The translations under genes and the position numbers were made by a program. Below, piece after piece: positions 10,301 to 40,479 of a stretch of DNA of 58,289 bases. The notes beneath the pieces are model-generated. The model was not told the DNA's origin, ran no database searches, and saw only the letters and a list, made by a program, of their open reading frames with translations. This DNA comes from Catajapyx aquilonaris (Eukaryota). How positions within the stretch are numbered: position 1 is the stretch's first letter; every line of letters starts with the position of its first letter. The DNA lies in contig JYFJ02002368.1 in the NCBI GenBank assembly GCA_000934665.2, positions 1-58,289 of the forward strand, in the 5' to 3' direction.

Positions 10301-10365
10301 ATTGTTCATTTGCAGTACAGGGCAGCAGTATACATAAGGTTTGGTTGCATCTGTATATACATCGG

Positions 10366-12229: not shown

Positions 12230-12557
12230 CGGCCATAATTGTTGTTGCCGTGAAAGCCAATGGCAAGCCCTATTCCGATTGGCCAGGGCGCCAGTATGGG
12301 CGTACGGCGCTTGTGACGCGCAACCTTTCCCAGCGAAACAGCGTTCTCGTAGGGCCATTTATCAAAAGAGGAAGCCGCGCCCCCACCGATGCGGACCCTT
12401 GCCTGTCTGTCCCCCGCCCATACCTGCCGCACTCTGGCCACGACTATTCCTTCTTGAAGGTGTCGCGTACTTGTCTCAGATTGTGTGGCCTTCCCCATCA
12501 TGTGCTTGTAGTGCTTGGTGACGTGCGGGTTTCTTTCCTTGTAGAGACTGTGCTATC
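12230..12557 (+). promoter_or_regulatory. Probable caudal core promoter / 5'UTR
   Basis: Shift to GC/CpG-rich sequence just upstream of the ATG; CCAAT at 12257-12261, inverted ATTGG at 12278-12282, AT-rich TTTATCAAAA near 12358. TSS cannot be determined from sequence. Confidence 0.45.
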
Positions 12558-15500
12558 ATGGTGTCCTACTGCAACGCGGTGGCAATGTTCCCGGCACCGA
12601 ATCGACATGCCCCGCATCACGCCAGCCAGACACCGTACTTTGCCTATGGATACCCACAGCAGACAGCGGCACAGTATGTGCCCAACATGAACATGGGGGA
12701 GCTGAACTGCAACCTCCAGCAGTTTCCAATGACACAGTTTGGCAGTCCTGATGGCCTGCAGCACCATCAGGCAGCATCTGGCTCGTGGCACAACCCGTCC
12801 GTGTACCCGATGTCGGCTCCGTTGCCGCACCATACCAGCTCGTGTGCTAGAAACACGGTGCCGTACGAGGAATGGAGTCTGCATGCACAGCAGTCGCAGT
12901 CGCCACATTCGCCAAGTCCATGCTCGCAACATATGGCGTCTCCCAGTCCTCAGCACCAGCAGCAAGGGTCTCAGAGCCCCACCTTGGCCCCGGTTGGCAT
13001 GTACCCGCACTACGGGAACATCAAACAGCAGCCGACAACGCCTGACTTCCCGTCGTGCTCGCAACCGCAGGACCTGAGCAGTGGTGCGCAGTGCTTAGGT
13101 GCGGCACCCTCCGGAGGATCCTCTTCGGCCACCATCACCGCAACGGCCATCGCCACCGTCACGGCTTCGGCCGCATCACCTGCCGACTCCGGGTTGGCCG
13201 TATCCAGCGACGGGGTGTCCAGCTCCGATTCGCCGCACCAGCACGAGCAGGTGGCAGCCGCAGGGGCCGCCCAGGGGCAGACCCAGCAGCAGCAGCAACA
13301 GAACCAGCAAAACCAGCAGACGGGACAGCAGCAGAGTGCGACGTCGGCCATACCAGCCGGAGCGCACCATCCTCACCACACGCACCCGCTGACCCACACG
13401 CATCCGCACGCGACGCACCACGGGCTGACACACCACGGGCCGCCCTCGGGCGCGTTGGTCGCCGCAGCAGCCGCAGCAGCCAGGCCGCAGCCGGTTCGAA
13501 GCCCATACGAGTGGATGAAGAAGCCGTCGTACCAGAATCAGCCCAACCCAGGTAGATTGCTTTTTCATTGCTTTGTCTCATTCTGTTATTGCTTATTGTT
13601 GTGGCTTCGGTGCACTAGTTGAAGATGGAAATTCCAGAGCCGTTATTGTTGCTTATCATGCCACAGTCTGAATCGGCCTGAATGCATCTTGGCAGTGCAC
13701 CATCTTGTATAATGGCAGATTGTAATTTGAGTGTGCTTTGGGGTATATTTGTCTGCAAAATTTATTCTGATGGGTGACACTATATGACAGCATATGCTGG
13801 GTGTCACTTGATATTAATCGTGCGTCGTTTACCTGTTGAAAGTAATTTTTTGACGAGCTATATCGTACAGTTAGCGTAACGTGTACAGGCAACAGTACTT
13901 ATTAATTTATTGAAAGAGTACTGCGTGCACACTTGTCGTGTGCTTATCTTGTTTGACAAATAATGTGCACATGTACGTACTATGCTAAAGTGCATCAACT
14001 AGTTTCCAAGAATAGCTCATTGCAATGCTCGGCTTATCTTGTCAATTTTGATATCTTGGCTGCTCAGTCTGCTGTTGACAAATCCTAAATCAACCGAAGA
14101 CAAATTTGAAGTGTCGTATCAATTTAATTACTCGAATCATTTGTTGGGACACAATCCACAGCTTGATGGGAAGTTATGCGACAATGCACGGTGGCGTTTA
14201 CGCCAACATTGAGTAATATGTGACGTAAATTGTTCCAAGCGTGGGACTTACGTCAGCATGTGCGACACTGCTGCAGAATACTATTGACGTAAATGCTATT
14301 TAATTCGTAAAATTACATCACGCAGGTATACTATAAGCAGCAACATGTTATGCAGTGCGTATTCTATTGTTGATAATATTTTTTTGATTGGTGATTGATG
14401 TATCCTGCAGACTGCGTGTACCATATAGGCGCATTTTAGATTTCGATATGTTACTAATAAATTTCTGAGAGCAAAAGTATGGTGTCAAGCACAGTTATGG
14501 CCTTGTTTTCATTGCCGATCTAGTGTTTATTATATCTACAAGTTTACCATAATTTGTAGGCCTTATAAAAATTTATTTGATTTGCTTTATTACATAACAC
14601 GCAATTAACCAGTACCTTCCGTTAGTTTATATATTTATGGACTATATAATTTCTTATATTTCAACCCGCATTCGAACTTCACAATGTCCCCAAATACGTG
14701 AACCTGCCATATTTTTGGAACAATATTTTGATGAAAAAAGGCATGTATATAGCGATTTAAAGGTGGCCGTTGCAGACCTGCAATAACAATCGAAGCTATA
14801 TAGCCATAAACTATTGTAATAAGCTCTGTTGAATATAAATGATGATTTGTCAAGCAGATATTAATAGTAGAACTATATTAAATTGTGTGCTCTATATGAG
14901 TGGTTCCTTATTTGTGTCCGCAAAAGGTCAAGAATTATTACAGCTTGTCTGTATTTGAATTGAAAAATATATCATTAATAGTCACGTACGCTAGAGTAAA
15001 TGCGGTCAATATTATTCGATTTGATGTAACGATTATTTGAATGCAACCCAATTGTTGGCATACGTACGAGTACACAGGCATTGCAGTATTACCTGTTCGA
15101 AAAGAACCGGAACAAAGCGGTGTCAGCCGGCAGTTGGTTGAAGACAGTGATGAAATGGTTTCATTAGATTCTATTTTCACCTGCCACGAAATACCTTATA
15201 CAGTCATAGTACGACTCGTATGTACAGCATAATTTATGACAGAGCAATAGGACATTTGAAATTTTTTTAGCCGTGAGTATTTCTCTCACCTTCAGCTGTG
15301 CGAACCTATTTGCATTTTGCAATGCATACACTCTGCAACCATTTCGGAAAATTCACTGAAAACTCTCTGTGCATGAAATTTTGGAAAGGCAAACTGCTTA
15401 AGTTGGTGCAATCTGAACAAAATTTGGAATAATTTCATATACAAGTAGGCTGCATTGCATTCCCCATTCTAATCCCCCCCTATATTATAATTATAAACCA

Positions 15501-18500
15501 GCTTTCGTTGGTATCTGTATTCGAAATTTCACACACCAAAGCCCTTTCAATTAATTGCACCAATACGGTGCAGCACAATGTACACATTTATTTTGATGGA
15601 CATTTTACATGCACAGTAGAGCAGCAGGTGTATTTTTCACATAATTCATCACGAGTTGCAGCAATGATGGCATAAAGGTGTAATAAGTTAGTTATTGGAA
15701 GCATTGAGGCTCTCCCTGTTTGTCCAAGTTAATCTCCGCGTACACCATTTTGTACGTAAAATTTTAATAATAAATTATGACGAACATTAAATAGTGTTTA
15801 GTGTATTATAATGATGAAGTATCAGCCATCTATTTGTAATTATGCATAATGCGATATACTTGTGATTTGAACATTACTTGAACGTCACAGATTTATTGCA
15901 GACTATATAATTACACACAGAATAAGAAATGTAGAAAGTCTGCTCCTATTATTGTAATGAATGTGAAGTCGATCGTTTTAGGAAAAATCATTTGTGGCAT
16001 GGTATTTTGCAGAACTACATGGTACGGTTATAATAAGTTTATATCAGAAATGTATTTTGTGATCACGGCTGCAGTTGGCGGTTATATACTCTGGCACGTG
16101 TAAAACAATCTCTTAACTATTTACAACTCCTGCAATAATAATTTGGCGCAAAAAGTTCGTTACCCCTTCAAGGCGACAAAGTCACGAAGCTGAAAAGAGT
16201 TAGGCCTATTGGCACTTGCGCTCTATAAAGGCTAGTTTTATGTTTCAAGACTTATATAGTTGTGGGTTACTCCGTTAATGATTGATTAATTAGTAAACCT
16301 ACCAATGAGTTAAATAGACGTACGATAAACAGTGTAACTAGTTATATGAGTGTCAGTTGTATACAGTATAGATGGGCTGTTAAATATGCTGATATCGGTA
16401 TTTTTAAAAAAAATCTGCCATCGGCTTAGTGAAAAAAGTATGCATATCCAGTACATGTTACACCCTTCTTACATAATATGTTGCATAACTTATAGTTTGT
16501 TTATTATCAGACGCTCTTGAAAGCAACATGCACTTTCCGTTCCATTTCCTGAAATTCCGACAATAATTTTTAACTATAAAATTTGTAGTCACTTTTACAT
16601 GGATATTATTTTACGAAATAAAGTGCATTGTTGTCTATAGACTACTTCCAACTACGCAGAGCTATATCGTTGTCCGATAGCCAACAATGGTACTTAAAAT
16701 TTTGCCGACAGTCTGGCTCCGAAACACAACGAGATAAAGAGCCTTGCATATTATGCGGATGGCATTGTTTGGTACGTTGAATTTACATTCCCCCAGTCTT
16801 TTGCATATATATAGGGCTTGGGCATTTTCGGGAGAACATTTGAGTTGCTGGAAAAGCCCAAGTGAATACTTTGGAACTCAAACTGAGCGCATAAAGGGAG
16901 AGGAAGGGAAGGAAAATGAGGGAAACCCAGAGATAGATAGTTTTCTTCTTCCTTCCTCATTCCGGCCCCCAGAATCCAGATCGTGGCATTAACTTCAGGA
17001 TGAGAAATGACAACTCCTCCCCCAACATCTTGAAGGCAAATGTGCCACCAAAAAACATAGCAAAGGCTTGGAATTTGTCGAGAATAAAGCTGATAGACTA
17101 CTATGTTGACATCTTTGATTGTTGAGGTTTTCACACGAGGGTAGAAAATTGTTTGCTACTGTTTTGGTTGAGGTGGAGGGAAATTAAAGGCAGATGCAAA
17201 CAAAGGGAATAATGAGGTTGTGTGTACAGAGTTCCATGAGGGACATGGTATGTGGATGGTATATAGTAACAATGGAAGGGAGGCCATATCTGCGGCTCAG
17301 CGAAATATGGCGCAAGTTGTGGTGCCCCCAAAAGGCCTTTTCAATTCATTCTTGTGTCTGGTCGGAATGGGAAGTAAACGGATGGGAACGTCCCATTGTA
17401 GGCGAGGAATGGGAGGCCCAATGTCTGGTCTAGGGCTGCCGACATGGTTGTCTAGGGTGTGCTTGCACAACCCACACGTAACGCTCTTCACGGTCCTCCA
17501 GGGGACAACTGAGCCCGGGCCTTACAACTGCACTGCCACCATTGGACAGAACCAGAAGGGCTTTAGTATATACACACATACTATATACATACACAACACG
17601 AGGGGCAACGTGTGTATAGGGCCTGGAGGCGACGACCATTTTTATTATGTGATATTAAAGCTTCTGCTGCCATAAATAATTCCCTTATCTCTCCAATGCA
17701 CTGAATGAACTTTCTTTTATACTTGGTGTCGTTAAAAAGAGTGATGACATAATATTATCCTCTAACCCTGAACAATTCACATATATATATTTTTTTATTG
17801 CAACGCGGGCTTGTATTTTAATTAGCGCCTGTATTCATTCACGCCGTACTCTCGGTATGTGATACGTAGGCCTACCGTATAAGCGAATTAGTTCAGGAGT
17901 TAGAGTCATATGTTCTGGAATGCACTCGGTAGCTTGAATCAAAATTTGTTTGAGATTTTTAGTAGACAAAACTGAAATTAGTTTCTTTTCTTTCAGAAGT
18001 GTGCGCGAGGCATCCTTTTGCTTGGGAAGACTACGGTAGGCCTACAAGTACGTTGATATTAGATTTGGCATGCATGAAGTTACAAGTTGTATTGTGTAGT
18101 GTGTACAGTGTTTGTGAATGTTTAGAAGATCAAGTTAGCGCGTTTTTTTTTCCTTTTCCACTAAAGTTGGTTAGGTTTTGCTGCCATCTGTCAGAAGTCC
18201 AACAACATACTTAACCTGTTTCAATACTTTGTATGCATCTCGGGCGCGTCTGGTCGGGTTATAAGGCTTTTTGGCTCACCAAGTGTGGTAACAGAGAAGA
18301 CCCCCACTTACTTTGCCACGCCGTGAAAGAGACCCACTTTTTGAAAGGGGGGATTTCAAAGATGGCTGTTGTGCCGCCCTCCTAGACGAAGAGAGGCCTC
18401 AAATAGCAGCCAAGAAGAGCAACAAACTTGGCCACTATGAGAAAGAGGAGGAGCTAAAAAACTATCCTCTGACATTTACCGGGTTGTAAATATTCCCACC

Positions 18501-21500
18501 GAAAAGCTTTGGGAGTGAAGAGACAGAAGAGATGGAGGAACTTTTAAGAAAAAAAAATATATAAGAGAGAGGGTTTGAGCATGGATTGCATCTTTTTGCC
18601 TCTTGTTTTTACGAGACAGGAAGTGACAAACTTGACACGGAGACAGATGCGATCTGAGTGGTGAGAAAACGAGGGCGAAACAAAGATGGCGAGAGTCTGG
18701 AAATACTAGGGGAAACGGCAGGCTTGTAAAAAATTTTTTTAAAACGGAAGTTATTAAGAAATTCTGTGGAAGGATTAGTTTCATTTAAGTGCGTACAATT
18801 ATTGATGATAAATTTGAGCTAATAAGTATGCATATTTTTTTTAAATGTGTAGTGGTCGAAAGCCTTTGTTAGATAAAATATGTGGAGTGTGTGAGTTCAG
18901 CATTTGTTTGAATAAGAAAACCAATTTTGCATACTGCTGCGTGGGCGACCAAACCACAAGAGCAGCAGCGATCTAATAAACAAAATTTCGTTAGGGGAAA
19001 CCCACCGTGCCTGGTCTTATTTAAAAAAAGTAGGTGTTAACCTGATCTGTAAAGGTCAATGTTACTATTATTTGCACTGTGCCTAAATATAAACCAGCAA
19101 TAATCTGAGATAAACTTCTCACCTTATATATCACGATGCCAGTTTTTACTACCCAGTTTTAATATGGATATGCTGCCACACTGTGCAAAAACCGAACTTG
19201 TATTAGAAAACCCCAAGTTTTTTGAACTAGGACAACATTTTTGTCAACCGAATTATATTCAAGGAATTTGCACTGATAGTGGTGGTGGCTATTTTTGCAT
19301 AGCCATGGTATGTGTCATTAGGTGCAAAACGTGGCGCTTTTCCGCTAGAGAAAACGCAGTTTGAAGGAAAGGAAGTTTCCAGCACACGAGAAATAACTTC
19401 CCGAACTTGTGAGACGTGTGAAAAGTAGAAAGAACGTGTCAAAATAGTAGCCTCTCGCGATGACTTTGCCTTTACACATATATATATATACAGTTGGACC
19501 TCCACCATTTTCCACCCTAACTGTCGGTCACCCAGAGTTGGCTGATATATGGATTATACACCCCCCTCAAGACATTTAAGATGCATGAAAAGTCAGGGCC
19601 CATTGATCGCGGTACACCTAGCCATATAAGCACGAACAGATATATAATTAGACAGGCTGAAAGCAATGAATTATGGACCTATGCGCACGAGGAGAGCACC
19701 TGAAAATCAGTTATACTCAAGGGTTCATGTGATGTATAGAAGGACCTATTGATTAGTATGTCTGACGAACCACTGCCTAGGGTACACTGCATCAACTATT
19801 AGCTATTCACAAGTGATCAGAAAATAATATTTCCGACATATGTTAGGTTGATTTTGTATAAAAGAGACCATCCTCTGCCGCCGGAAAAGGGCCCGAATCA
19901 GGGACTGAAAGACAATATTCTTGCATGGCAAATACGAGCGTCTGGAGGGCACTCTGAGTGAGAAAGGAAGCGATTTTCTGAAGTGGTGTACCGGAACGCC
20001 TTTGGGAAGCCAACCTCTCTGAAAGAATACCGAAAAAAAAGGGGGCACGGGGCGAAACAGGAAGAAAAGGCGGCCGTGCGACTTACAACTATCCGGGACA
20101 GCTTCCCACGAATCAAGCAAAACAAGATGGCGGGTTAGGATTTTATATATATAAAAAAACAAAGTTTGGGTGCGAATGAGGCGGAGAGAGGCTCATTTGA
20201 AGGGAGGTTGCGAAGAGGTCCCTAGGGTGCCCTATAGTCCTGGCGGCCAAGATTGTGGGCGTCCGGCCTGGGAGCGCTTGCCAAGATGGATGACCCTCGA
20301 CTCGTGTGGCCTCCCCTCCTCTTTGGTGGACAGCAAGGAGCTAACCCACCCACCTAACCTCAAAGCTGGTTTTTCTTAGGAGATGCCCCGGCCAGGCAGG
20401 GTTCTCATGTAAATTTAGCTTGCCGCCTTGTGATGCTTGGCCCACCTGCTCAAAAAGACACCCACTTGCATTCTGGGAGCGTCCTTTCACCCTGCTCCGG
20501 CCATTTTATGCGGGGATGAAAAACAAGAGATGGTTTGACCTTCTTTGGATATGATGACTAAGCTGGTTGGATGTCAACTAATCCAATGTCAGAATTTTTT
20601 AAATTTAATTTTTTAATATTGTTGTACAAAATGAGGGGTGTGGTTGGCCTAAACACCTATCAACTATGTAAAAAACCAGACAAACAGTAAAACCCGCATT
20701 TGATGCATATTTCCAAACGTATGTCTGTATGTTCCCGATGCAAATCAATACGGAGGCATCGACATATGACCCAGGGGGATCATTAGGGGTAGTTTTTAAC
20801 GGGGAAGGTTTGTAGCACATTGGACTTGACCTCCGAGGTCATCCTTGGCCGCAGGAGGCAAAGTGGCAGAAAAGCAGGATACATCGATTCATCGATTCAT
20901 CCAAAGAATTTCATAACGTAGTTTTCTATATGATTTGCACAAATGTTAATTCGTTCTTCATAAGTGTTGAATGGTCATCCTCAAAGCGCAGGTCAGCCAA
21001 GCATTAATAGCGGACTATAAAACTCAACCTTGTGGAAAGTTCAAGTGAGGGTACCTAGGAATGTAGGTTTTTTTTTAAAAAAAAAAAATGGAATGAAAGT
21101 TGTCGCGGGTGTGTATTGAGCATGAATGTGGTGGGTGGGATGTTGGGAGGGGTTGTGTCGAAAAATGTCCCTTTTTCAGAAGCCGATTTTTGGGACTTGG
21201 GGACTAGGGGCGAGACTGCGGAGTATATCGCTTTATCTCCAGGGGCTTATCCTGGCGGCTCGAGCACCAGACAAAGGAAGGACTGGGTTTGAGGGGAGGT
21301 CCTGCAGGGGCGCAAATTGGGCCAAAGCGAGCCGGCAAAGTTCCAGCCGGGTGTCCGGTTTGGGGGGGCAAAGACCCCGGGTCGGGAATGGTATGGTCAA
21401 AAGGGAAGGTCCTGTGGGGGAGGGTGGACAAATTAAGCCGTCGTCAATCACCGGCCTGACTTACATCCGTTTGCTTCAACCGCTTTTAGCAGTGGAAACT

Positions 21501-24500
21501 GTATATGTACAATGAATTATGAATGGAATTTGCATTTAACAAAGTTTTAACAAATTTAAATTGTAGGCAATTTATCATATAGGAAAAAAGTAAGAACACC
21601 AGAAGGTATACAAAGGATAGCATAAACATGAATTTATGCAAATGTGCGCACATAGGATTTATGAGGTGGCTTCCTCTTTTTTGATAAATAGGGTGATGCG
21701 AACCTTGTTTATTTCACCGTTGAAGTCACCAAATTCATTACCCGACAATCTAAATATTGCGTGCTTGCCTGTCAGTTTTCGAGATTTCTGCCAGGTGCAC
21801 TCTGACAGGAAATTGTCACATGAGCGTTACTCACGTCGTTATAGGCTTGGATAGTAACGATCGCGATGACATTTACGTCTGCAATAAAATCTCGTAAACA
21901 CCAGGGGGTATAGGGGGGGGGGGATTGCACTGTGATATTTGTGCAAGGTGGTTGTACGCGCCGAATAATATTAATCACACGATGTGCGTTGAATATTATT
22001 TTTGGATAGTAAGAGAGGGGGGCAACAATGGAGACCTTAATGAGGAAATTGTGCGCAAGCGTGACTGCTCAGCTCGGCCACAAAGGACACCGACATGTGT
22101 GCAATAGACCGTTTCGTATGTCCGACTTACTTGGCTCACTATTATCCCCTCGTAAAGTCCTTGCCGAGTTTCCATTTTCTTGGGAGAAAAGAAACGGGCA
22201 CTCCTGGTTATAAGAAGTATTTTTTTCCGTTTGTTTCTATGATTCAAGAATGAGATTGCAAGAGTTTTCATGAAAATTTCTTTCTCACTGGCTAGCAAAT
22301 TGCAGATCTTCTTTTAGCAAAGGGGAGGGGGGGGGGGGAAATAACACGCGCGATATCTATAGGGTTTGGAATAAGTTCGCAGTTTATTGGGGCAATAATC
22401 GGAGGTGTCGATTGCTGGACTAATTATTTCTTGTGTAACCTTTTCATGAAGGACAGGCGGCGTTGTGGAAATCTCACACTTATTTTTGAGTCATGGCTAT
22501 CATTAGGGGAATATCCAGATAGTGGCAAACACACTATTTACGATATCTTGTGAGTTTTGGAGAAATTATGATTTTTTTTAAGTTACTGGTATGTCAATTA
22601 AAATTATTCATTATTTATGAACAGGTTTCTGGTACTTATTAGCCCCTCGGCAGAATCATCAGCATATTATTACTACAATTAAAATAATATACTGCTAGTC
22701 GCTTCTTATCAAGTCAACAAGTGATCAGTTGACGTACACACCAGCAGTCAAACGCAAAATCAGGGGGTACGCTCTGTATTGGCACAGACCAATAATTGGG
22801 ATTGTAGGTCTGGTAGCACAATAACTGCCACAAAACAAACCATCCAGACAAATGGTTTGGTTTCGAAATCCCATATTGCAAATGGCAACGAGGATAATGG
22901 GAATCATCATAATGCCACAGCCCTTTTGTTTTCTATGCCCATCCTCATTCGAAGCCATCTTGAGCCAGGTTCCATGTCACGATGCCATCAAGTCATGCTC
23001 CCCCCCAAGGTCACGATTTCTATCATACAAACCACCCTCAAAAAAAGAGTATGTATCTAATCGGCCATCTTATACTCTCCGACTCTCTCTCTCTTCATCG
23101 TCCGCCAAGTGGCCCAAGGAAAACTCTGGCACGAAATGTGACCAAACCCACCAGGTAAAACCTGGTTGGGCCAGCATCCCTATAAATCATGTCCTCTTAA
23201 TGGATCATTTGCTATTATCTTCCCAGAAGAATTTTTTTATAGCAATTAATATATGTCGCTTGAAAGCTGAAAATGTCGGTATGCAACTATAGAAAACGTA
23301 ACGGTGCAATTAGAGAACACTGCTTGCGGTGGTCAGTTATAGATGAATTTTTTAACGAGCCGAAAAGTCGGCCATATTGTTACCCCCTCAGTATGGTAGT
23401 GTTGGAAACAATTTGCGCCAATTTTTAAAAATTCATTATTTTTAGTAATTTTCTGTACTAGTTTACAGCCAATTGTTAGCACAATCAAGTTGTGTGCTTT
23501 AGGACAGGGGGGTGGAAGGGGGAGGGGGTAAAAGGCCATTTAGCACTGGGTGTTAGCAGCAATTACCCGGGTGGCAGGTGGGCCTTTTGAAGACGAATGG
23601 GGCGCGAAGTGGGGGCGCTGACAACCCAATGAAGAGGGGCTCGTGTCCGGTCGAATGAGAAGGATGGTGCTAGGGGGTGGTCACTGGGCGGGTCACATGT
23701 CAGTCCCTTACACAGGACAGATGGACCACTCGAGCAGCTGCTGGCAAAAAGTTTTGCCCCCAAGTTGTTTCGAGTGGTGGAAAGCCGGCCAATTTTGCGA
23801 CGATGCAATTAATAAGTATACAATGCAGAAGGGTACTGTACTGTGAGATCCTGGTACCGGTTTCCGGGTTCATTTTCCAGGTCCCCCTTTTGTGATGCCG
23901 GTGGTCATTAAAAAATGGCAGTGATGAAGAACCTTGCGTGGCTTCATATATGAGAGTTTTGCTTCTGAAATTGCCACATTAGCATTAACTCTTTACCGTA
24001 AATTGAGGTGCAATTCGTGTATTCTTGAGAGAAAACTGTACAATTTTTAGGGCGAAAAAATAACAATGAAGACATCTAGAGCCGTCTGGTCAATGTCACC
24101 AAGGCTTTCCCCTCGAGACACCTAGGTGCATGTCACATTGTTACTTCTCATTCTGGTGGGATGAAATAGCCTTTTTTTTTACTGATGCTCTCTGTAATGG
24201 GCATTCCTTACTCCTTATCGCCGCTCAGGTATGATAATATTAAACATTCAGTGTCAAAGTTTATAGCTTAGCCATAAATTTTTAGTTACGACCAGCTGGT
24301 TTTTGTGAGAGGTTGGGGGGCTAAGAGTCGTACACACGCCTTCAAAGACTATACAATGTGTCGGAATTTTAATTTTTTTCGTGGACATGAGTCGATTCCA
24401 AATATGAATTTTTCACTAAAATATTGTCGGGCGACATTCCCACTGACATACGCATGTGAGGTGAAATATACTGGTATGGCACGAGTGTAGATATACACAT

Positions 24501-27500: not shown

Positions 27501-30500
27501 AATGTGATTTTCGACCCTGTTTCATAATATTAGGCTGTTTCTCGATATTAGTTGGTCTGTATATTAGTTACGGACCCCAAGCACTGCTCCGAAAGTAAAA
27601 GCAGCAGCAAACAGCAGAGTCGTTGAATGCATCACGATAGCCCGTAATTAACGTAAATTAAGGCGAACACGATAGCGGGCCGTCAATAGGACCTGCTTGT
27701 AAATCATGCAGAGGGGGTTGCAAAGGCAGCGAATTCCCCGATAGCAGACACGCTCGAGGCCCCTATGAGCAAGGGCAGAGTCCAGTTTTTTTTTTTTAAT
27801 GTACACTTTTTTTTTGTATACAATAATGGCGGCCGTTCGTTGGTTGGAATAAGTAAAGGCTGTGTGGGGATGAAGAGGCGCCACGTAGACTCCCAACGTG
27901 GATTGGGTATATCCATGGCCATTGCATATAGCCCAACCCCTGGCGTTGCATGTCCCCACCTGGATTATATACACCACAAAAAGGTGGGGACTCCGCCTAT
28001 GCAGCTAAGGCCTTTCTTGGAAAAACGGTTCTTTAATCAAACATGGCCGATGTTATTAGTCACCGATCGGGATGCTTATTATTTTAGGCTTGGGGGTTTT
28101 TCAATAGTGTACGTTGCCTGCTGCTTTTGTGGCCTGCAATATAACTTTGGATGGGGAGGGTTTATCGATTTGACTGCCCGGTGGAGTAATATAAGCTTAA
28201 TAATGGCATTAGGTTATATTTTCATAATGGACTAGGTGGCTATAAAGTGGCACCTTGTATTAGGACGGGTTGACAGTATGGGGGACATAATGAAGTGTAA
28301 ATAAGGCGGGTTACAAAATGGGTTACGTAATTCTGCAAAATGTATTTTTCCTTGTTTGTGTTTTTTTGTGAGTCGGAATATATTCAGCGTTTGCACAAAA
28401 ACAACAGGACCCTAGTTTTTCGGGTTATGTAATTCAATAATCTGGTATTCAGTGACAGTCGGCGTAAACAACTGCTTGTAACTTTATGGGGCTAATATAG
28501 TAATAAAAATCGCGGTGGCAAGTGTTGTGAAGAAGCGTACACTGACTCACCCTGTAGCAAATTCGCCTAAAATTATGCCTGATTTTGACTTCTTTTTTAA
28601 ATTCAAGACTTATGCTTACTAAATAAATGGCAGCTGCTAGTTTGGAAGAATAAAACGCACCATTGTCACTTGCCACTGTTTCCAATTAGAAAAGAGGAGA
28701 AATGGTAGTCCCCCCTCTTCTCTCCCCCATCTTGATGTACAGAAGAGCAAAGAATCTCTGCTTGTTCGAGGTGTCCCAAGCGGGCCTTCCCATCCCATTG
28801 GCCACAGCTACAGAAAATGGATGACCAGCTTTCCGGATATATCTACAAAAAAGAAGAAGAAAATAAATGAAGAGCTGAGATGAGAAAATTATTGGGCAAA
28901 CATTCCCTTGCGAATCAGACCAATTATCCCTATTTCCAGGTTCATTTGTGCCCAATTTTTTTGTGCGAATTTGCGAGTTATGTAGTGCGAATCCTGCGCA
29001 TGCGACGATCATAAAAGATGGTTTTTAAAGCGGCATGTAACAATTTTTACCACGGTCGTGTTTGCTAACTGAGTGCCCATAACTCGAGGTGGCCGGTTTT
29101 CTCGGCTTGTGGTTTTCAAGACTTGGATGGGGAAGGCTTATGATATATGGCGCGGTGGAGCGGAGGCCACTATACGCTTATTAATTTCAGACCTGTCCAC
29201 GGTTCCTTGCTTTTTATTCCAAGTCTGTGCAGCTTTTGTCGGGGAAATAGAGAAAAGAACCAACAGGTAGTTTTAGCACACCATGTACCAGCCATGCATG
29301 TTCCGCATATTGATTTGTCACGAACTATGACAAATCCATATTGTACTTATCAAATGCGACTTAACTGTTTGTTTGCAGGTGATCATATCTGTACTGGTGT
29401 AATTAGCCCTTAGGATTTCTTAGAAATCCTGAGGGCGCCAGAGGGTATATACTGTACCGTATAGGGTTTGGTCACTAGGGAAAATGGCCACTCTCGGTCC
29501 AATTTTTGGGAGGGCTTGAAATTGAAGCGTGAAGCCATCGGGGGTCGGTTGACAAGACGGGGATTGTTTCGGGATAAAAATTGAAGGGCTATATTTTATC
29601 AGGTTGTCTCTTTTCCGGTCCCCATTTGACCTTTCGCCCACCCAAATAAAATGTAATGCAGCTTTTGCGCATCGTAAATCACTTAGGATCAGACAATGTA
29701 CCGTACACTCTATAGTTTTTGGAAGAACTTGTTACTCTCAATAAGTTTGAGTCTGTACATATATGATCATAAACTTACATGCCGTATGTACAGTGGCGGC
29801 CAAGTGTGAAGAGATGAGTATCTTTATAGTCATTATTCTTTCTGCAAGAAGGAGTTCACGTAATTCTCGAAAAAAAGGTCCCTGGATCGGCTTTGTACTC
29901 GGCTGATTCCGTAAGCTACGGTGCTGTAAAACGTTTACAGCAAGGATAAATCAATCACGATAAGACAATTAAGCTTATCCTGTGAGCCCAGTAGATTCCC
30001 TGTACGGGACAGCACGTTTTTCAGAATTATTTACGGTACGACTCAGGTACCAAGAAACAAAGGAGTGATAATCAGCGAAATATTTAAAAATATATATATT
30101 TATAGTTTGAAGTGTGATTTTATAGTTGGGTTAATAGTGTATTGTATAGTAGTCAGCATGCGATGTGTGATGTGCCGGACAATAATATTGCTGGCTATAA
30201 GAGGTGCGAAACATGGGTATTGCATGTCTCATATGCCTTATGTGAGGATGACCTCGCATAAAATTAACTACTGCCGTGTTCTTTTAGAGATATAAAAATT
30301 CGCGCCGCTAATGAAACGGTCCTTATTGTTTATTTACAGGAAAGACCAGGACAAAGGACAAGTATCGTGTGGTGTACACAGACCATCAGCGATTGGAGTT
30401 GGAGAAGGAATTTCATTACAGCCGATACATCACAATCCGAAGGAAATCTGAACTGGCAGCCATGTTGGGCCTCTCTGAGAGACAGGTAAGAAGTTATTCC

Positions 30501-30858
30501 GCAGTGACTTGCGTAATTAGTGACTCATTTGGGAACGTGGAGAGTAATTGTTGTAATATAACAATTTTCCTTGTTTGGCAACAGACTTCTCACAGATTTC
30601 ATAAGCATATTTTATAGCGCAATTATTTTGTTGACCATCATTCTAACACATGTCTGTTCCAATTTTTTTTTGCAGGTGAAGATCTGGTTCCAGAACCGTC
30701 GAGCGAAGGAGCGCAAACAGACAAAGAAACGCGAGGAGCTTCTCCAGAAGGAGAAGATTGAAGCCGTGACGAAAATGCAGGCCGTAGCCGTAGCGCATGC
30801 CGCAGCCGCAGCCGCAGCCGCAGCCCAACACAACGGACTCGTGCACAAAATGGAGTAG
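12558..30858 (+). CDS. cad: Caudal/Cdx ParaHox homeodomain transcription factor, 3 coding exons (12558-13551, 30340-30485, 30676-30858), 440 aa
   Basis: Exon 1 starts [11 protein letters not shown], is Q/H/P/A-rich and ends [19 protein letters not shown] (hexapeptide), donor G|gtagat. Exon 2 (tttacag|) completes [49 protein letters not shown], donor gtaaga. Exon 3 (ttgcag|) reads [15 protein letters not shown]...HKME*. Phases are consistent (994+146+183=1323 nt). The homeodomain is diagnostic for Cdx. Confidence 0.97.
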
Positions 30859-33077
30859 TGTCCGGCCATTGTTGCACACACACACACCCCCTCACCAACC
30901 ACCACATGCCTTGTATAACCAGCACCCAGTGTCGTACTCAGGTACGCAATACCCCTTGGAGGAGCAGTGCCATAAACTGATTACCCCGGTGACGGTATAC
31001 ATAAACTGGCGGACATATACCTCACTTCGCTGGATTGGCTGTGTCCTCCTAATTCTGCTCATTTCGCATGTGAATCAGTGCTACGGTGTCCGGTTTTTTG
31101 AGACGTACCGACCGAATAGTGTGTATTTTTTAGTCGTTATTCGTGCACTTCTTCCCTTGACCATTTTTAAATCATTTCTCTCCGGTTACACCTGGGCCAA
31201 TGTTGGGGATGCATGACGGGAGACAAAGAGGACAGAAAGTGAATCATCTTGTGTCTCTGAGGACAGACGATGCTCGATGTGACATCTCATTGGGGTTGAA
31301 CCCCAGAGACAAATCAGGGGGCTGTTGCAGCATCACCAAACACCACTGCCTAATGGACGTCTGGGGACACATTTTAACCCAGTTTTCGGTTCAGGAAGGG
31401 GACAAGTGACAAAACGCCTGCGTGTCATCTCCGGGGATGAATTTTCCTAGCTCGGTACATTAATATTTCAAAAAAAGCGCGACACTGTTATCAAAGCAGC
31501 ATAATTTATTTAGAAAAAAAATTCGGCTTAGAAGAAATGAATATTTGCTAACGTCAGTCGCGTTGGGTGATAACGCGTGATATATATGCGTCAGTACTTT
31601 ACAATTTTTATCAGTATGTCAGTACACTTGGATCCCATGGGATGGGTGGGGTCTAATTTATTCTGTAGATCCGATGCCTCATTAGCTCTGTTTTTTTGAC
31701 TTAAATTCGCAACGGAATTAGCGAGATTTCCACCGGGACGCAGGTTTTAGGATTTATCTCTTACCTGATGATTAATTCAACTGGTCCCCGAATTTAATTA
31801 CTGTTGCGTGCAGATTGGTGTTTTTTTTTGGTATTCTGGTGCTGGGTCTATCTTTTTAACGAGACCTGTTCATAATGGCATTCCCCATTTTGGCTCAGGT
31901 GTGGCCCGGCTGTCCCCCCCAAGGTTCGTGTGTTGCTGACCTCTCTTTTCTATAGTGTTCAGCCTCAGAATAGTACTGACCTCACAATGGAGCTAGTGTC
32001 AACAATGGACTTGTGATGTCAGTACTATAATCGATGTCTGAATAGGATGTGTGTGTCTATCATATCTCCTCTGTGCAAGTCAAGGGAGGCGATCTCAGAG
32101 CACGGGATATTTCCTATATCCTTTTTATATAGTCTACTGTGGACTATTATTCACGTGTGGCTACATAACACTTGTCACCGCACTGCATCACGTGCCTTGG
32201 ACCTATTTCACTATTGATGTTACATAATGTATAATGCGTGTTTTCTCATTTTTGAACGCATCGAAAAAATAATAATAATGTCCATTAGTTGTATTGTTGT
32301 GTTTGAAATTGTTTTGTGCGGTGGGGTGAGGGGGACCATGTAGCTTTTGTATATGATTAGTTTGTAATTTTTTTTTTTTAGAGTGTTAGTATCCGCTTTT
32401 TTGGTCGTTGCTCTCTTTGGGACGGATGTCCTGTACTTCTGTTCTGCGGGTACGCTGTACAGATATTTTGAATTTTTTTGGAGGAAGGAGCTCGAAGTAG
32501 GAGGAGGAGGAGGAGGGGGGGGGATATATATACAGTATTTGTTTTGGAGGCAAGTCTGGTGTTGATTCTGGCCTGGATTTGTGCTGGCGAAGGAGGCGCC
32601 CAGCTATAAAGGAGATCTGTCCTGTACAGTTTCTGAATTCCAGTACAAACTCATAGGCCTACCTAGTACCTACCCTGTTGAGTGTGGAATTTCTATTTTG
32701 TCACCGGCCATTAGCGTCGCATACCATTTCAAAAACAAAAAAAAGTATATGCAAATTATATACGTATACGGACTTCCCCAGCATCGGATGACTTCAATGT
32801 ACGGCACAGACTCGTAGTGTTTGCAACAAAAAAATAATAATAAACTCAGTGATTGTGAATATTGATTCAATACATTCCATCTTCTCTCTGTAGGTAGGCC
32901 TTTTTATTCACTCTTTTTCCTATATGGTTGTTACAATATTATGATCTGTGTAACTTAGATCGTAGTGTATAACATGCATGCGGCAAATTTTTTTGTTTGT
33001 TGACGACACGTAATAATATTATGTAGCTCACGACTTGTACAAAGTGTAATACAACATTGTGTCTGGATGACATGAAG

Positions 33078-33083
33078 AATAAA
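33078..33083 (+). terminator. Likely caudal polyadenylation signal (3'UTR ~30859-33100)
   Basis: AATAAA followed ~20 nt later by a GT/T-rich tract (ttttcgtattgtgtttttttc). An alternative AATAAA lies near 32839. Confidence 0.55.
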
Positions 33084-35638
33084 TTTAAAGACATACAGCT
33101 TTTCGTATTGTGTTTTTTTCTACTGAATTGTCATTTTCAGTTGATATCATTTTCCCAGCAGTATAACGGTTGTCGTGACAGAGCGTGACATGAGACCCAG
33201 CAGTTATTCATTCCCCCAACGAAATATGGCCTCTCCCAATGGGATCTCAACCACGACATAGTCAAATGATTCCCTAGACTTTTGCTCAACTTTCTGTCTG
33301 CGAAACTGGAGCCGACTGGAGGTACAGGATGCGTCATAAAATGCAGTTGCCATTGCAGTTGTGTGTGTAAAGCGGTTGTTTAGAGAGTGGGCAAAAGTCT
33401 GTTCTGGGCCGGGTTTCCTGTCGTGTGTCGACCGTTGCCAAGCCACAAGCCCCTGGGGATGCGTTTTGGGAATGTTCTGTAGGCCGTAAATGAGCCAGTT
33501 GGTTGGAGGGGGGGTTGCTAGGGAGGACACACAAGACAACAGCTAGGGGGGACGGCTACTGGTGAAAGTCGACAATTTCACGCCGGCGGTCAAACCCCGC
33601 CGCGTGTGGTGGCAACATCAGCAGGAAGCAGAAGAAACGAAAGAAACAGAAGGGGGGGAAAAAAAGTTGCTTCTGGGCCGATGAACTTGGACGAACTTGC
33701 TTTTGTTGCTGCTCGAGCCAACAGGTAAGTACTGTACAAAAATATGCTGATGCCACACGATAATTCCGTCAATGAATTAAAGCTGTGACTCATTGGTGCC
33801 TCAATTAACAATAAGGTCTAAGCAATCTTCTCCCGGAGGTCACCTCTTTTTTAAACCAGGTCAGCCATCAGTATATTTTACACATATCCGTACAATATTG
33901 TACTAATAAAATGTTCCTTTCGATCAATTTGGTACCCCCTAAGGTACGTGAACCAATCGAACCGCCAATTACTTCACCTAATCTTTCACAATTCCGCGTC
34001 TAGGAAAGGACGGGAGTTATGACCAAAGCTATTTAGCTCAATAAATCGATCAAGAGTCAATATTTGATATTTTTTTTGTACCCTACCTTCTCCATACCAA
34101 TCCCCTTCGAGGCAAAAGAGTCATATAACCGATTGCATACCCGGTTGCTAAATTCCAATGACATAATACTTAAGGGGTCATCCAAAAAGAATATACTGTA
34201 TAGAGTATAGATATTGTAATATTTTTGCATATTAGAGGTTACATGGTGTCATGCTGGCTATAGATTGAAAAAAAATGTATTGCAAAAATTTATGCAATTT
34301 TTGTGAATTAGGAGGAGACACCTCGATTTCATTATTGTGGTCGCAATTATGACGCGTCATTTGGATTTTAAAACATATATATTTGAATATTTGCTGACTG
34401 AATGGGCTGAAAATATTTAAGCCGTTATTATATGACTTTATTACGACTTTGCAGCATAATGTTACGTTCATGCTGTACTAAAACGTCACGCTTCGCAGCA
34501 TGGGGGCTGCTATAATGCTTTATGACCAAACGTCCCTTAAATATGCTTCATGATGGTAATGCACCGTACACATCGTTTAGCACCAATGACGACATGAACT
34601 CCGGAGCGATTTAACTCCATTCTGAGCGTAATTGATCTGGCCATAAAGCCAATTGCACCTTACGACTGGGAGGGTACAGAATCTCCTTTTTCCACCAAAG
34701 TGAGAAGTGGCCATCATTTTGAGCCATAGGAAATGAACATGTCACTTTACTGCTACTGGAATTTTCTGTGCAGTATATAATATAAAAAAATATATCACAA
34801 GTTTCGCTTAGGCCTAGGAAGTGAAAGTCTCCCGATGCTTAGGATGGAATCTAGGACCTTTTTCTGGAGCAAGGACTGATTGATTGATTACCAATCGATC
34901 ATACCTTAGGGCACACTTCTGGCGGTGTATTTGAACCGTGCTTGGTACCATTTTTCAGTAATTCGGGAGCAAAAATTTTTCGGCCTTCATTTCAACCCCA
35001 ATCAAATGGCCTCCAGACGAAAATTAGTTTCGGTAACGAGGTTGTATACCGTAACATAAAACTAGAGAAAAACTCGGGTCTTAAGCCTGCCTTTCAAATT
35101 CCGTTTGTCACATAGGTTTTACAGCCGGGTGTTGCGTGGTTAGCTACCGAGCGACGCCATTTTTTTCAGTTGAAGTGTCCGAAGAAGAGGGCCTAGGTCC
35201 CTTTGTCCAGGACAGGAACAATGCTGCCCCCAAAAAGCTGCCCTGTGGCCAAGTGGAGGGCAATTGGGCCTGGGACGATGCTATCGGGAACGGCTATAAA
35301 CTCATGAGCGATGCAGCTCGACCCTCCCGAGAAAGAAAGAAAGAAAAAAAAAATCTTCAGCATCTCGGCTTCCATTTTATTGAACATGGCCGGCAGGATG
35401 GTTGTCACTACAAAAAAAAAAAACATGGGGCTTAAAAAATGTTGAAGGGCGTGGAAGAAACCAGGGTGAGGAATGTGCAAATGAAATGCATTCCACATAA
35501 GTAGTTCAGTGTTTTGAACTCTGTACTGACTACGTACTAAACAGCTCGAAGCTGTACCTGCGGCAGAATTTGAGTTACGGCGATTTTTTTAAAAAATGTA
35601 ACAAGAACAAAAAGTTAGAAAAATTCATTGTTGAAAAT

Positions 35639-35698
35639 TGTACTGTACTGACTATGTACTGGATTGTACTGACTGTGTACTGGACATGTACTGACTGT
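35639..35698 (+). repeat. Short tandem repeat of TGTACTG-based units
   Basis: tgtactgtactgactatgtactggattgtactgactgtgtactggacatgtactgactgt; a related unit lies at ~35521-35538. Confidence 0.75.
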
Positions 35699-36979
35699 GA
35701 GGAAACTGTTTCCATAGCACATTTAGCAGATGGTTTTTCACAAACAATGTCTTACACAGCCCACAGCGACCTCCAGGTGTAATATACAGCCAGATATAGC
35801 TATCTGTCGGCCTTCTTTAGCTTAAGGTGGCAAACAATCCTCAGGGAGTTTGCGGAATCGAGAAGACTATAACTAATCTCCAGGTTGACTCGAGGTGTTC
35901 AGCCACTGAGCGAAATATTGCCGCCGCATGTCCCAACGCCATAAATTAGTGCACCTTTGCGTTTCACAGGTGCGAATTCCTTGTCTAAGCCCCCCCCCCC
36001 GAAAAGGTCTTATCAAATGTATAGTTGCAACAGAAGAGTGCCGACAAAATATGACGTCATTTGATAGTTTCCGGTCCCATCTTTATTTGGCGACAACAAG
36101 AGTAGGGGGAATGGATCAGAAGCCGAAGAAAGGTATATATGTGTAAGATGGGGGGGGGGATGCGGGTATGTGACGTCACGTTCATAAATTTGGAGTGGGT
36201 CCCCATATAGCTGTCAGGCTAATGTCTTTATGGCCCCCCGCGTTTGGGCTGTCGGGAGAAGGAAAAAGGGGAGGGGGGAGGGGGGGGGAGATCCTTGCTA
36301 AAGGTCCGATTAAAATGGGGCAGAAGGAGAAGCAGCAGACATAGGCCTAATCGAGGAAAAGGCCTACCTTCGCTCCCACAGGGGGGAAAAAGACTAAGGA
36401 TCCCCCCCTTTTTCTTAGAGTTTTTATCGCCTACCCGCCATGTTATAGTGCTTGGGTTTTTTTGTGTGGAGTTTTTTATTTTATTTTAAGATTTTTTTTT
36501 GAGAAGGTGGTGATGGGGAGAAGACAAAGCCTGCATTTGGATTGAAAGGATGGACGCTTGTTATGGCGGTTGCAGCCTCAAGTTATGGTATTAGAGGCAG
36601 TTTATTTGGTAACAACCACGGATGGAATAATAATTGTTAATGTATGGTAATTTATAGCAGGTTGTAACTTGTTAATGTTGTATAATATGCGTTAAAGATC
36701 TATCACAGTACAGTGTAAAATATAACACTTATGTAGGCTGAAACAAGAAACTGTGGTCTGATAAGTATAATATTTCTGGAAACTCACCCTGTACAGGGTA
36801 AAAGTAATTTAGTATTTATTATTTTGATTCATTGGCTTATTCTTACTATTAGAAACTACTGCATCATATTTCAAAAATTGACAAAAGATAATGTACATTT
36901 GTTTTTCGCTTGACATTTCGTCCCAAAGAACATGGTGTTTCCTGGAGACAAGAGATTAGTCCTCTTTCTGGCACCACTA

Positions 36980-37217
36980 CACTCTTAACCATTTACCTTC
37001 TCTAGAGAGGGTAAGAAAGTGGCAATTTTTTTACCTTACATTGTAGGGTAAATATTCTTGGGTAAATTGATTCTAAGGTAAATTTTGCATGTATTACCTT
37101 AGAAAATAGAGGGTAAAAAGTGTCTCTTTTTTACCCTCTATTTTCTACATGCCAAATTTACCTTANCTACACTCTTAACCATTTACCCTCTCTAGAGAAG
37201 GTAAATGGTTAAGAGTG
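36980..37217. mobile_element. TA-flanked MITE (same family as 3222-3269), containing an assembly N
   Basis: Termini CACTCTTAACCATTTACC / GGTAAATGGTTAAGAGTG with TA on both sides; internal TTACC/GGTAA sub-repeats; N at 37166 followed by a second left end. Confidence 0.7.
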
Positions 37218-37995
37218 TATCAACATGCCTGTACAGTACATTGCATAAAAACTCTCATGTAAGCATGTGTTTAATATGCAACACAACTCGCTTCAGAATA
37301 CTATATCTTTTTATACCAATGAGTAATTGCACATTGCGATTCAATTGGCTCTCTTACAGTTCGTCTTATCTTCTCAGCTCAGAAAAAGATCAGAAAACCC
37401 TGCATAATCCAAGCACAAATAACAGTGCGCAACCGGTATTAATTTTTTGATCAACTAAATAGCATATTATCTCGGTATGCCGCGCTTCCTGTAACATTCC
37501 TTGTAAGGACTGCAGACCTCGCTCACAAATTTTTTTTGTGTCCCCTTATTCGTTTGAGGCCGACTAAGTTTTATAACGCGTAATTATCGACATTTTCACT
37601 TATATAGTGGAGCGAAGTGAACGGATTTTTTTTTTGTACCTTTCTTCTCATTCGCCTTCCATTTTTTGTATTGTGAGTTGTTGCATATTAGTTATATTAT
37701 ATATTTTTGAATATTAGGCCTCCACTTGTCCAGATAGTTTGAATTATCCTGAAGTTAGGCACAGCTACTTTTCGAGGTCATCATTATTAGCTACATAAAA
37801 TAATAACAAATAACTCTAAAAAATAACATTATTATTTATTGTTTTATATTATTTCATGCCCGCTATTTTCATAGAGTATGTATGAAATTGGACTGAATTA
37901 TTATCATTATTGCACCATATTTCCTCTAGTTACGTCACAAAGATAAGGACCAGGCGATGACCCCTTTGCCCCTTTTGCTGGCCTCAGAATCCAAG

Positions 37996-39171
37996 ATGGC
38001 CATGGACATCTCCGTCGTGAACAAACTAGGCTACGAAGAATTCAACGCCACGTTCGGAAACGTGATCGAACACGGCCTACTCTGCACCGCTGCAATCTGG
38101 TCCCAACGTCCATTTCGCGATGTCCGCCATTTGCACCAAGAATACTGCAAGTTCATCGATGCCCTTCCTCAAATTGGTAAAAAACAAAAAAAAACTGCAT
38201 AATTTTTAAGTCCATTTTTTTTCTGGGGCGTTGACATAAGTTGATGGATGAGTAGGATGGAGAACTGGTTGTGGGGAGCATAAAAGAAGTGGTGGTGCTT
38301 TGAAGGGGGGGGGGGGGGGNGAGGTGAATCTTGATTGGTTGGGAGTCGGCTTGTGTTGGTTGGCGGTCTGGTCTTTTTGGCCCGGGGAAATTGGGAGGAG
38401 CCTGCTCACGGAATGAGTATTATTCCCCCCCATCCCCACCCCCCCACCCCACCTTGGGACCCCCTAGCTATAGATTGTTATCATACATGGGGACTAAAGC
38501 CAGCCTCCATGGTCAACACCAGGAAGACTGCACGCACCTGAGGGAAAAAGTTTTTTCCCCCTGATATTTTCTTGATTACAAACAATACAAACAATCACAA
38601 ACATTAATTATTCTGAGGTGTAAATAATTTAAAAAAAATCCCCGGTGTAAATAATTATTTTAAAAAAATCCCCCCGAAGATGAAAAAAGTTTGTCCTATT
38701 TGGTTACCATTTGGTTTGCCCAAATTTTTAATTATGGTTTTTTTTAAAGGAAAAGAGGGGATATTGAGGTCCCATCCTGATTTGGCGGGTCGTTTGGCTG
38801 AATTGGGTCAGCTTTCACCAGAGTCCACCAGAGAGCAGGAGGAAGCAGGAATCATCCGATTGACTCCACAGGAGCGCCATCTTATGAACACTCTTAACAA
38901 TCGGTCAATTTTATTATAATTTATTCTTAATTTTTTTTAAAAAAAGAGGCTATAATTTGATTTAATTTACAGGTACAAGGAGAAGTTCAATTTTCCGTTC
39001 GTGATTTGCGCTAGGAAGAACAAGAAGGAGGCGATTATGAAGGGATTGGAGGAGAGGCTGGGGAATGAATACTTCCAAGAGTCAGACATTGGGGTCAGGG
39101 AGGTCAAGGACATCTGCTACCTACGTCTTGCTGACATTATTGACGAGGTTCCTTTCCAACACAAGATGTAA
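37996..39171 (+). CDS. URAD: OHCU decarboxylase (URAD / PRHOXNB, ParaHox neighbour), 3 exons (37996-38176, 38750-38903, 38973-39171), 177 aa
   Basis: Spliced product MAMDISVVNKLGYEEFNATFGNVIEHGLLCTAAIWSQRPFRD...GKEGILRSHPDLAGRLAELGQLSPESTREQEEAG...NNRYKEKFNFPFVICARKNKK...EVKDICYLRLADIIDEVPFQHKM*. Matches recalled URAD motifs (FGNxxE, WSQRPF, HPDLAG with catalytic His, ESxREQ, FPFV, EVKxI..LRL). GT-AG introns in frame; AATAAA at 39184-39189. An upstream in-frame ATG exists at 37957. Confidence 0.95.
38617..38675 (+). repeat. Two-copy tandem duplication (~28 bp) in URAD intron 1
   Basis: GGTGTAAATAATT...AAAAAAATCCCC occurs twice in tandem. Confidence 0.7.
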
Positions 39172-40352
39172 TTTATGCTGGGGAATAAATAGTCATTTGG
39201 ATTAGACGGATATTATCTCTTTTTTATAAGCATTACAATAATTGCACTAGGCTTTTTTTTCCAGGGTAGTGTGACATTTAAAAAAATTCTGCGATTCCGA
39301 TGTGTGAATGGTGAGTACAGCAGCGATTAAAAATCCCGTCATTTACAGGTTTAATCACGCAGCAATTAAGGGTCGCTTGTATAGCCTACCAGGTCAGATA
39401 ATATCGGATTCTTGCCTACTAAAATCTGTATTTGGCACGAAAAACATTGCCCTAAACTGTCAAATCATTTGGTCAGGCAAGAATCTGAGTTAACCGACAT
39501 GGTGCAGAAGAACAGTATAAGCAAAAAACGCAATTGCAATGGGCAGTAAAACCAATAATAATTGCTTGGCGACTAGCTCCATTTTAGAAATATTGGAACT
39601 ACTGGATTAATTTGTGTAATAAAATGGGGCTGGACGAATGACACTTCACCTCGGCTAATTTATAAAATCAGTCCTTTACCATATTTTACAAACATTTAAT
39701 TCCCTTAAAAATGCAATAGTGTTCGTTTCTTGGATCCATTCAAATTTTGAACACCAGGAATTGTAATGGTACCATTTTATAACACTAATTGTCTGTTTGG
39801 GGACATTAGAGTTGAATCGATTGTTGGCTGATGGGCTGAGTTGAACAGGACAGTTGTGCTGTCTTCTGGAGACATTCATAATAATTCTGAAATTTTGATG
39901 TACGTACAGTAATTATTATATCAAAATTTGTACTTGAGTAATTGTGGTTTGATGTGTTATTTGACAAAATGCTTTCTTTTATGCAGGTGCAGCCTTCAGA
40001 TATTATATCAGTGGTCTGACAGGTCTACATTACCATGCTGCTGCCGCCTTCACAGCCCTAAGCAAGCATCACCTCCATCCTCTACAATAGTACATGATCA
40101 TTGGTCTTTCATCGCAGCATCCAGCATCTCGATGGTCGTCGGACACACTGCATAAGCCATGGTGGCATTAAACATAGCAGCTGAATCTGAACTTGAGTGA
40201 GGGAAACAAGGGATGGGTTTCAAAAAATAATTCTCGACTGTTGATAAAATGAAGCACCGAAGTCACAAGCCTTGGGGTAGTTGTGATGTTGACATTGTTG
40301 GAGGCATGCTGTGTATGTAACGTTGATACGAAATTGTACTTTTTGCTGCTAA

Positions 40353-40479
40353 GGGCCGGTTTCACCGAGCTCAGTATATGATAAAACCAGGGTTCTTTCT
40401 CAAAATCCCTATCTATTTGTATTGGATTTTCCTAAAGAAACCTGGTTTTATCATATACCAAGCTCGGTGAAACCGGCCC
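40353..40479. mobile_element. PIF/Harbinger (Tourist-type) MITE
   Basis: 127-bp fold-back with ~40-bp near-perfect TIRs GGGCCGGTTTCACCGAGCT..GTATATGATAAAACCAGG; TAA on both flanks (40350-40352, 40480-40482), the Harbinger-type TSD. Confidence 0.85.

Follow-up and report, generated by a model that had tools for sequence, protein, structure and literature searches.

The window analysed here, the 58,289 nt of contig JYFJ02002368.1 in assembly GCA_000934665.2 of the arthropod Catajapyx aquilonaris, contains an intact caudal (Cdx) gene followed on the same (+) strand by an intact URAD gene, with 7.1 kb between the caudal stop and the URAD start and no gene detected in between. URAD is the OHCU decarboxylase responsible for the final step from urate to allantoin and, under its other name PRHOXNB, is the immediate neighbour of Cdx in the chordate ParaHox cluster. 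The arrangement had been noticed in a sequence-only reading of the contig and is confirmed by our gene models, by Pfam and by a scan of open reading frames (ORFs). We propose that an old Cdx–URAD neighbourhood has been retained here passively, with a local inversion, and put the probability of this at roughly 0.55; proximity of the two genes in the ancestor, whether kept passively or by constraint, we regard as about two-thirds probable. The pair is a candidate instance of retained ParaHox neighbours, its ancestry probable but unproven and regulation as its cause unsupported, and represents a modest, testable lead rather than a new kind of system.

Gene models and the interval between them

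The caudal model comprises three exons with GT-AG introns, encodes 440 aa and contains no internal stops (Table 1). It has a Cdx-type homeodomain with a KTRTKDKY N-terminal arm, which we take to be diagnostic of Cdx, and an upstream hexapeptide, placing it within Cdx/caudal; the Strigamia Cad row of a paper supplement carries an identical arm. A metagenome scan with exon 2 gave at least 592 stretches, and from the matches listed we obtained 38 Cdx-type loci, to which exon 2 is 69–96% identical. Exon 1 has no Pfam match, and a homologue search with it was also empty; that it is spliced to exon 2, over an intron of 16.8 kb that includes N25841, is inferred from sequence, and the caudal–URAD adjacency does not depend on it. 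No Pfam-supported ORF was found, among those scanned, in the 12.5 kb upstream of caudal (1–12557) or in the first intron (13552–30339, where most ORFs lay outside the scan), and together these probably form a large regulatory domain beside a compact, gene-dense region.

The URAD model also has three exons, encodes 190 aa counted from the first ATG and contains no internal stops. All three exons score above the cut-off for Pfam OHCU_decarbox (PF09349; profile positions 1–49, 54–101 and 103–155) and all three match the structure of the zebrafish enzyme (PDB 2o70). The RSHPDLAG motif aligns from 2o70 chain position 60 onward and His67, the catalytic residue of the zebrafish enzyme, is kept. Met1 of 2o70 aligns with the Met at 38002 (exon 1, E 1.5e-12), and a start at 37996 or 38002 is more likely than the ATG at 37957.

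Four sequencing runs were mapped on 29500–41000: X1, X2 and X4, which are DNA from one sample, perhaps the source of the assembly, and X5, which is from a second study and RNA-like (spliced). A 585-nt X5 contig matches the three URAD exons with 0 mismatches and is spliced at GT..AG joints exactly as in the model, with introns of 573 and 69 nt, and URAD is therefore transcribed. The depth of this contig is 91, compared to 2–11 for the pieces in the caudal untranslated region (UTR), although contigs cannot be used to rank expression.

The protein is 47% identical to a frog protein, 46% to one from coral, 42% to one from Nasonia and 38% to the URAD of Schistocerca. We built a tree of 31 rows, 30 of them hand-picked from fetched URAD-like proteins with fragments, long branches and near-duplicates omitted. 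The window URAD falls in an unresolved group of 25 rows with all seven named animal rows, split with 100/99 support from six outgroup rows (unnamed or IMG, presumed microbial). We rejected the possibilities that it is a pseudogene (the frames are open, the transcript is spliced and the His is kept) or a recent bacterial transfer (introns are present and it lies in the animal group), and predict it to be an ordinary, intact animal OHCU decarboxylase gene, although it may be a paralogue rather than the one-to-one orthologue of vertebrate URAD. A homologue search with exon 1 found nothing, and the ESM Atlas gave weak leads, its two top clusters being labelled 'commonest Arthropoda' with the phylum known for one member each, while a second query had no match. 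In the clam Mactra antiquata there are two near-identical URAD copies (P0111 and P0313) with locus tags two apart, showing that URAD can be duplicated in tandem.

Between caudal and URAD, none of 23 stop-to-stop ORFs of at least 70 aa reaches the Pfam cut-off, although genes with short exons could escape such a scan; this set excludes three ORFs that run antisense to exon 3 of caudal and two that overlap exon 1 of URAD. Rfam and ARAGORN (tRNA) gave no matches on the window. X5 cover is absent over 33340–36795, a gap that does not argue against a gene in that stretch. In a codon-bias scan, segments between the two genes score 6–10.5 and are purine-rich and of low complexity, but the test is weak, as the true URAD exons score just 10–13 despite being training data. 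The homeobox helix-3 motif of caudal is the only one in the 58 kb window, and neither ind/Gsx nor Xlox is therefore present in it, answering for the window the search that the sequence-only reading had proposed for the scaffold. We accordingly rejected an intact ParaHox cluster inside the window, since such a cluster has at least two tightly linked ParaHox genes.

Order of the pair and ParaHox relics in other animals

As in the window, Cdx and URAD directly adjoin each other on one strand in the ParaHox A locus of chordates (Gsx-Pdx-Cdx-PRHOXNB/URAD-FLT3; human 13q12, coelacanth and amphioxus). PRHOXNB is described as flanking the chordate ancestor's ParaHox cluster (PMC3698058) and flanks that of the coelacanth (PMC4471637). 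In human, FLT3 reads through into URAD, a gene of the same orientation at a distance of 11 kb (PMC12542110), and CDX2 has the FLT3 and PAN3 promoters 138 kb upstream (PMC9203705), from which we deduce that URAD is followed by CDX2 on one strand. The statement in the sequence-only reading that human URAD is 5' of CDX2 is thereby upheld, whereas in the window URAD is 3' of caudal. Also unlike the chordate locus, the window lacks Gsx and Xlox as well as any receptor tyrosine kinase, its other neighbours being an RBM28-like gene, a gene with a weak DUF4695 match and tubby.

The human order cannot be converted to that of the window by any single inversion, while two single-gene inversions or one transposition suffice. 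URAD may thus sit on the former Xlox side, as had been supposed. Alternatively, caudal may have been inverted where it stood, which would also give a 3' URAD, still located at the old cluster's outer edge; the supposed position of URAD where Xlox lies is one of these two geometries. Cdx is opposite in orientation to Xlox in deuterostomes and in Capitella (with 1–3 predicted genes between the two in Capitella). This suggests an old origin of the opposite orientation, with the rearrangement on the arthropod side.

Relics of the ParaHox neighbourhood are known outside chordates. In Platynereis the off-cluster Cdx retains neighbours of human ParaHox loci, which were used to reconstruct the bilaterian ancestor, and Rad50, CcnA, Btk and AIR1L are among the ParaHox neighbours that survive (Hui et al. 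2009, PMC2723086). Rad50, CcnA, Exosc9 and SF1KHL were matched at the level of chromosome bands and URAD is not among them, while the window shows a direct adjacency of two genes. The millipede Trigoniulus corallinus has a loose Gsx-Cdx linkage (PMC7523956), linkage on the same chromosome, at 28 Mb, is reported in a tick (PMC10726417), and in coral a Gsx-Xlox pair is flanked by POMP (PMC6214176). The earlier statement that arthropod ParaHox clusters are broken up is therefore overstated if it means that linkage is wholly gone; the millipede and coral relics are linkages of homeobox genes to each other or to POMP, not to URAD. The Strigamia supplement contains cad identifiers and, among the entries listed, no URAD entry by Gene Ontology or domain terms; the millipede file likewise showed no URAD entry, and in both the search was of annotation terms only. 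Drosophila cad presumably lies next to Pomp, although we found no source for this.

In a full-text literature search, most subscription papers being beyond its reach, no report of a Cdx–URAD pair outside chordates was found. As the pair is visible to anyone with a genome browser, this makes for a weak claim to novelty. In the literature consulted, the Cdx–PRHOXNB link figures as a feature of the chordate ancestor that is missing from a hemichordate; a genuine case in an arthropod would push it back to the protostome–deuterostome ancestor, give the reconstructed ParaHox region one more direct neighbour, and provide a cheap marker for the break-up of the cluster and the loss of Xlox in ecdysozoans. 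Mechanism is unchanged by this unless regulatory constraint is shown.

Retention, re-association and regulatory constraint

If the neighbourhood has been retained, Cdx and URAD would have been close neighbours already in the protostome–deuterostome ancestor, and in a slowly rearranging arthropod lineage no break would yet have occurred between caudal and URAD. The change of order would have taken two single-gene inversions in total (e.g. one per lineage, starting from an ancestor in which the genes lay head to head or tail to tail) or else a single short transposition. Retention would have been mostly passive, with no need for a shared enhancer. The chance that URAD in particular should be the immediate neighbour of caudal is 0.0001–0.003, assuming pools of 15,000–600 genes, and for pairwise micro-synteny blocks of at least three genes, shuffled genomes are reported to yield about one tenth of the observed number. 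The survival of other ParaHox neighbours in Platynereis and, with POMP, in coral also speaks for retention.

A number of observations weigh against retention. It rests on one genome, and a genome-wide scan examines many such pairs; if a set of about 12 named ParaHox neighbours is allowed instead of URAD alone, the chance of finding one beside caudal rises to 0.002–0.04 (pools and number assumed). The best topology of the URAD tree leaves the window URAD outside the insects, with no starred set around it, although a placement with a clade of 10 rows that includes insects is not rejected (p-AU 0.25). PRHOXNB is absent from the bacterial artificial chromosome carrying the intact Ptychodera cluster (PMC3698058). 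The genes reported 3' of Cdx in Platynereis are SF1KHL, Rad50, CcnA and Exosc9, without URAD, and the other side is occupied by repeats, with no gene reported 5' (PMC2723086). The Cdx–URAD link is therefore not found in all animals, and can be missing from an intact cluster. URAD was found, by hidden Markov model and tblastn, at none of the 38 Cdx loci, of which just five have 10 kb of 3' flank. The survey of caudal neighbours that had been suggested as a check thus produced no second protostome case from loci few of which are long enough to show one. In terms of a conserved microsyntenic pair, which is adjacent in several distant lineages, the adjacency has been seen in chordates and in this genome, with 0 of 38 in these low-power loci. 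The claim that the linkage predates the protostome/deuterostome split stands as the likeliest reading, on a single genome.

The next 3' gene of Cdx could be identified at three of the 38 loci and in no case is it URAD: it is CLEC16A in L027, Met-tRNA ligase in L037 and a second Cdx in L014, which also counts against retention. A Pfam scan of ORFs (33/33 in L013, 41/41 in L020, 15/17 in L022, 25/46 in L027, 16/60 in L037 and 20/70 in L014) showed no further gene beside Cdx in L013 and L020. The two Cdx genes of L014 lie tail to tail within 20 kb (1662–10700 on the + strand and 17951–19670 on the - strand), and L037 has a divergent Cdx-like homeobox at 9956–11890, in very compact, near-intronless DNA between an eRF1-domain gene and the Met-tRNA ligase gene.

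A last point against retention lies in the assembly, where the sequence-only reading had singled out N37166 and N38320 as places at which a misjoin would undo the adjacency. N38320 is in URAD intron 1 and is spanned by the X5 contig with joints as modelled, and a misjoin there was rejected. N37166 lies within a high-copy MITE (a miniature inverted-repeat transposable element) with a summed depth of about 11,000, compared to 20–30 in its flanks, and loose ends at 36978 and 37220; no contig listed from the four runs bridges 36997–37192, and this N is hence unbridged. The scaffolder might have fused two different MITE copies, of which there are hundreds by depth, in which case caudal and URAD would not be neighbours; the left piece has no right end of its own and the right piece resembles a complete short form of the element. 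We consider this very improbable. The repeat is just ~240 nt long, its flanks bear one element's two terminal repeats, left and right, in the correct orientation with TA at both ends, DNA contigs tile unique sequence on either side at the single-copy depth of about 20–30, and both flanks differ from the run contigs at several bases, as expected for a heterozygous site. A joint from 37147 to 37201 occurs at depth 17–28 in all three DNA runs (one sample), but its short side has 21 letters and another copy could be its source. The simplest reading is a single, probably heterozygous insertion site. The MITE family has internally palindromic terminal repeats and also occurs in the window as a 52-nt hairpin form at 3220–3271.

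Retention has also to be weighed against secondary re-association, in which Cdx and URAD stayed on one ancestral linkage group, chordates brought them into tight proximity independently, and intrachromosomal inversions placed them side by side again in this lineage. The order unlike that of chordates would fit this, as would the adjacency not being seen in Ptychodera, on the 3' side of Platynereis Cdx or at the 38 loci. So would the finding of no further known ParaHox neighbour in the 58 kb window, and for some named neighbour within an assumed linkage group of 600 genes, chance alone could reach 0.04 per genome. For URAD specifically it is at most about 0.003, changes of order are frequent in truly conserved pairs (PMC3514665), and there are few negative cases, most of which are uninformative. 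We therefore judge re-association to be the less likely explanation, while allowing it appreciable weight.

A third possibility is that enhancers of caudal lie within URAD or past it, or that the 4.9 kb from the 3' end of caudal to URAD contain a posterior gut/excretory enhancer used by both genes, so that selection would have kept the pair together since the bilaterian ancestor, with URAD as the bystander of a genomic regulatory block. Pairs of a developmental transcription factor and an unrelated housekeeping-type gene conserved across phyla are known, and a transcription factor with a non-developmental gene is a class enriched among them (Irimia et al. 2012, PMC3514665); in human, CDX2 can be driven by enhancers that lie on the URAD/FLT3/PAN3 side (PMC9203705). 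Cdx-type sites in 33100–37956 number 12, compared to 6.1 in a crude 2-mer shuffle, with 6 of 200 shuffles as high, although this is weak in AT-rich DNA. Both genes are expressed in the gut in vertebrates, and caudal is expressed in the hindgut and Malpighian tubules of insects. However, the published signatures that could be tested failed: bystanders in such blocks have extensive introns, contrary to the 573 and 69 nt of URAD, and co-regulated divergent pairs are arranged 5'-5' at short spacing, whereas this pair is in tandem at 7.1 kb and its orientation relative to chordates is not kept (PMC3514665). The pair further differs from those of Irimia et al. in being known so far from chordates and one arthropod, and Cdx is not named in their main text. 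TCF sites in the intergenic DNA number 0 compared to 4.1 expected; the same DNA had no blastn match (E 0.05) to the 38 Cdx loci, a weak test as these are distant and mostly short and the URAD introns were outside the query; and the link is absent in Ptychodera despite its intact cluster. We thus find no support for the earlier suggestion that the linkage is held by shared regulatory DNA, and a bilaterian-age linkage kept by a shared posterior gut/excretory enhancer, with gene order recording the history of Cdx flips, seems to us improbable. If it were true, URAD would mark the ancestral outer edge of ParaHox, so that its side would show on which lineage Cdx inverted, and would serve, across ecdysozoans, as a signpost to where the ParaHox locus lies and what became of Xlox.

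Other features of the window

Table 1. Positions of the genes and of the MITE in the window
Feature	Positions	Strand	Evidence and remarks
caudal/Cdx exon 1	12558..13551	+	N-terminal region; YEWM hexapeptide region and QPNP at its end; in-frame splice to exon 2
caudal exon 2	30340..30485	+	Homeodomain helices 1-2; Pfam Homeodomain E 1.3e-10; matches Cdx-type loci
caudal exon 3	30676..30858	+	Helix 3, poly-Ala tail, stop; Pfam Homeodomain spans exons 2-3
Probable caudal 3' UTR	30859..33100	+	~2.2 kb; AATAAA at 33078; low-depth X5 pieces 30962-33007; end inferred
High-copy MITE	36978..37219	.	Terminal inverted repeats of 37 nt, with TA at each end; contains single-N scaffold join 37166
URAD exon 1	37957..38176	+	Pfam; first in-frame ATG 37957; X5 contig cover 37985-38175
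URAD exon 2	38750..38903	+	RSHPDLAG motif; joint 38175 to 38749, GT..AG; X5 contig cover 38749-38902
URAD exon 3	38973..39171	+	Through stop; 2o70 E 2.6e-12; joint 38902 to 38972, GT..AG; AATAAA at 39184; X5 contig cover 38972-39210
RBM28-like multi-RRM gene	45046-49066	+	Pfam RRM_1 on several exons
Two-exon gene, weak DUF4695 match	49760-50692	-	E 0.005, below cut-off; between RBM28-like gene and tubby
tubby / king tubby	54438-57107	-	Pfam Tub E 2.5e-30

The stretch behind URAD (39100–41000) is rich in repeats and includes a second very high-copy inverted-repeat element at 40349–40483, with 60-nt arms and a summed depth of about 28,000. The multi-RRM gene, whose RBM28-like name is our assumption, has an apparent internally duplicated pair of exons around 46235–47196. 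We take the gene with the weak DUF4695 match to resemble human C11orf96, which lies on 11p like TUB, and on this basis the right half of the window may derive from a different ancestral linkage group than ParaHox. The tubby exon is 71–72% identical to proteins of mayfly, damselfly and mantis shrimp, 69% to Lingula, 68% to Strigamia and about 63–66% to most vertebrate rows, which makes an arthropod source likely, though the comparison is of low resolution. In the locust Schistocerca nitens, URAD (P0023) and king tubby (P0228) both list a longest contig of 638,960,400 bases and so appear to share a chromosome, while in the window they are ~15 kb apart. This hints that the URAD–tubby linkage is old in hexapods, and supports the right half of the window rather than the join at N37166.

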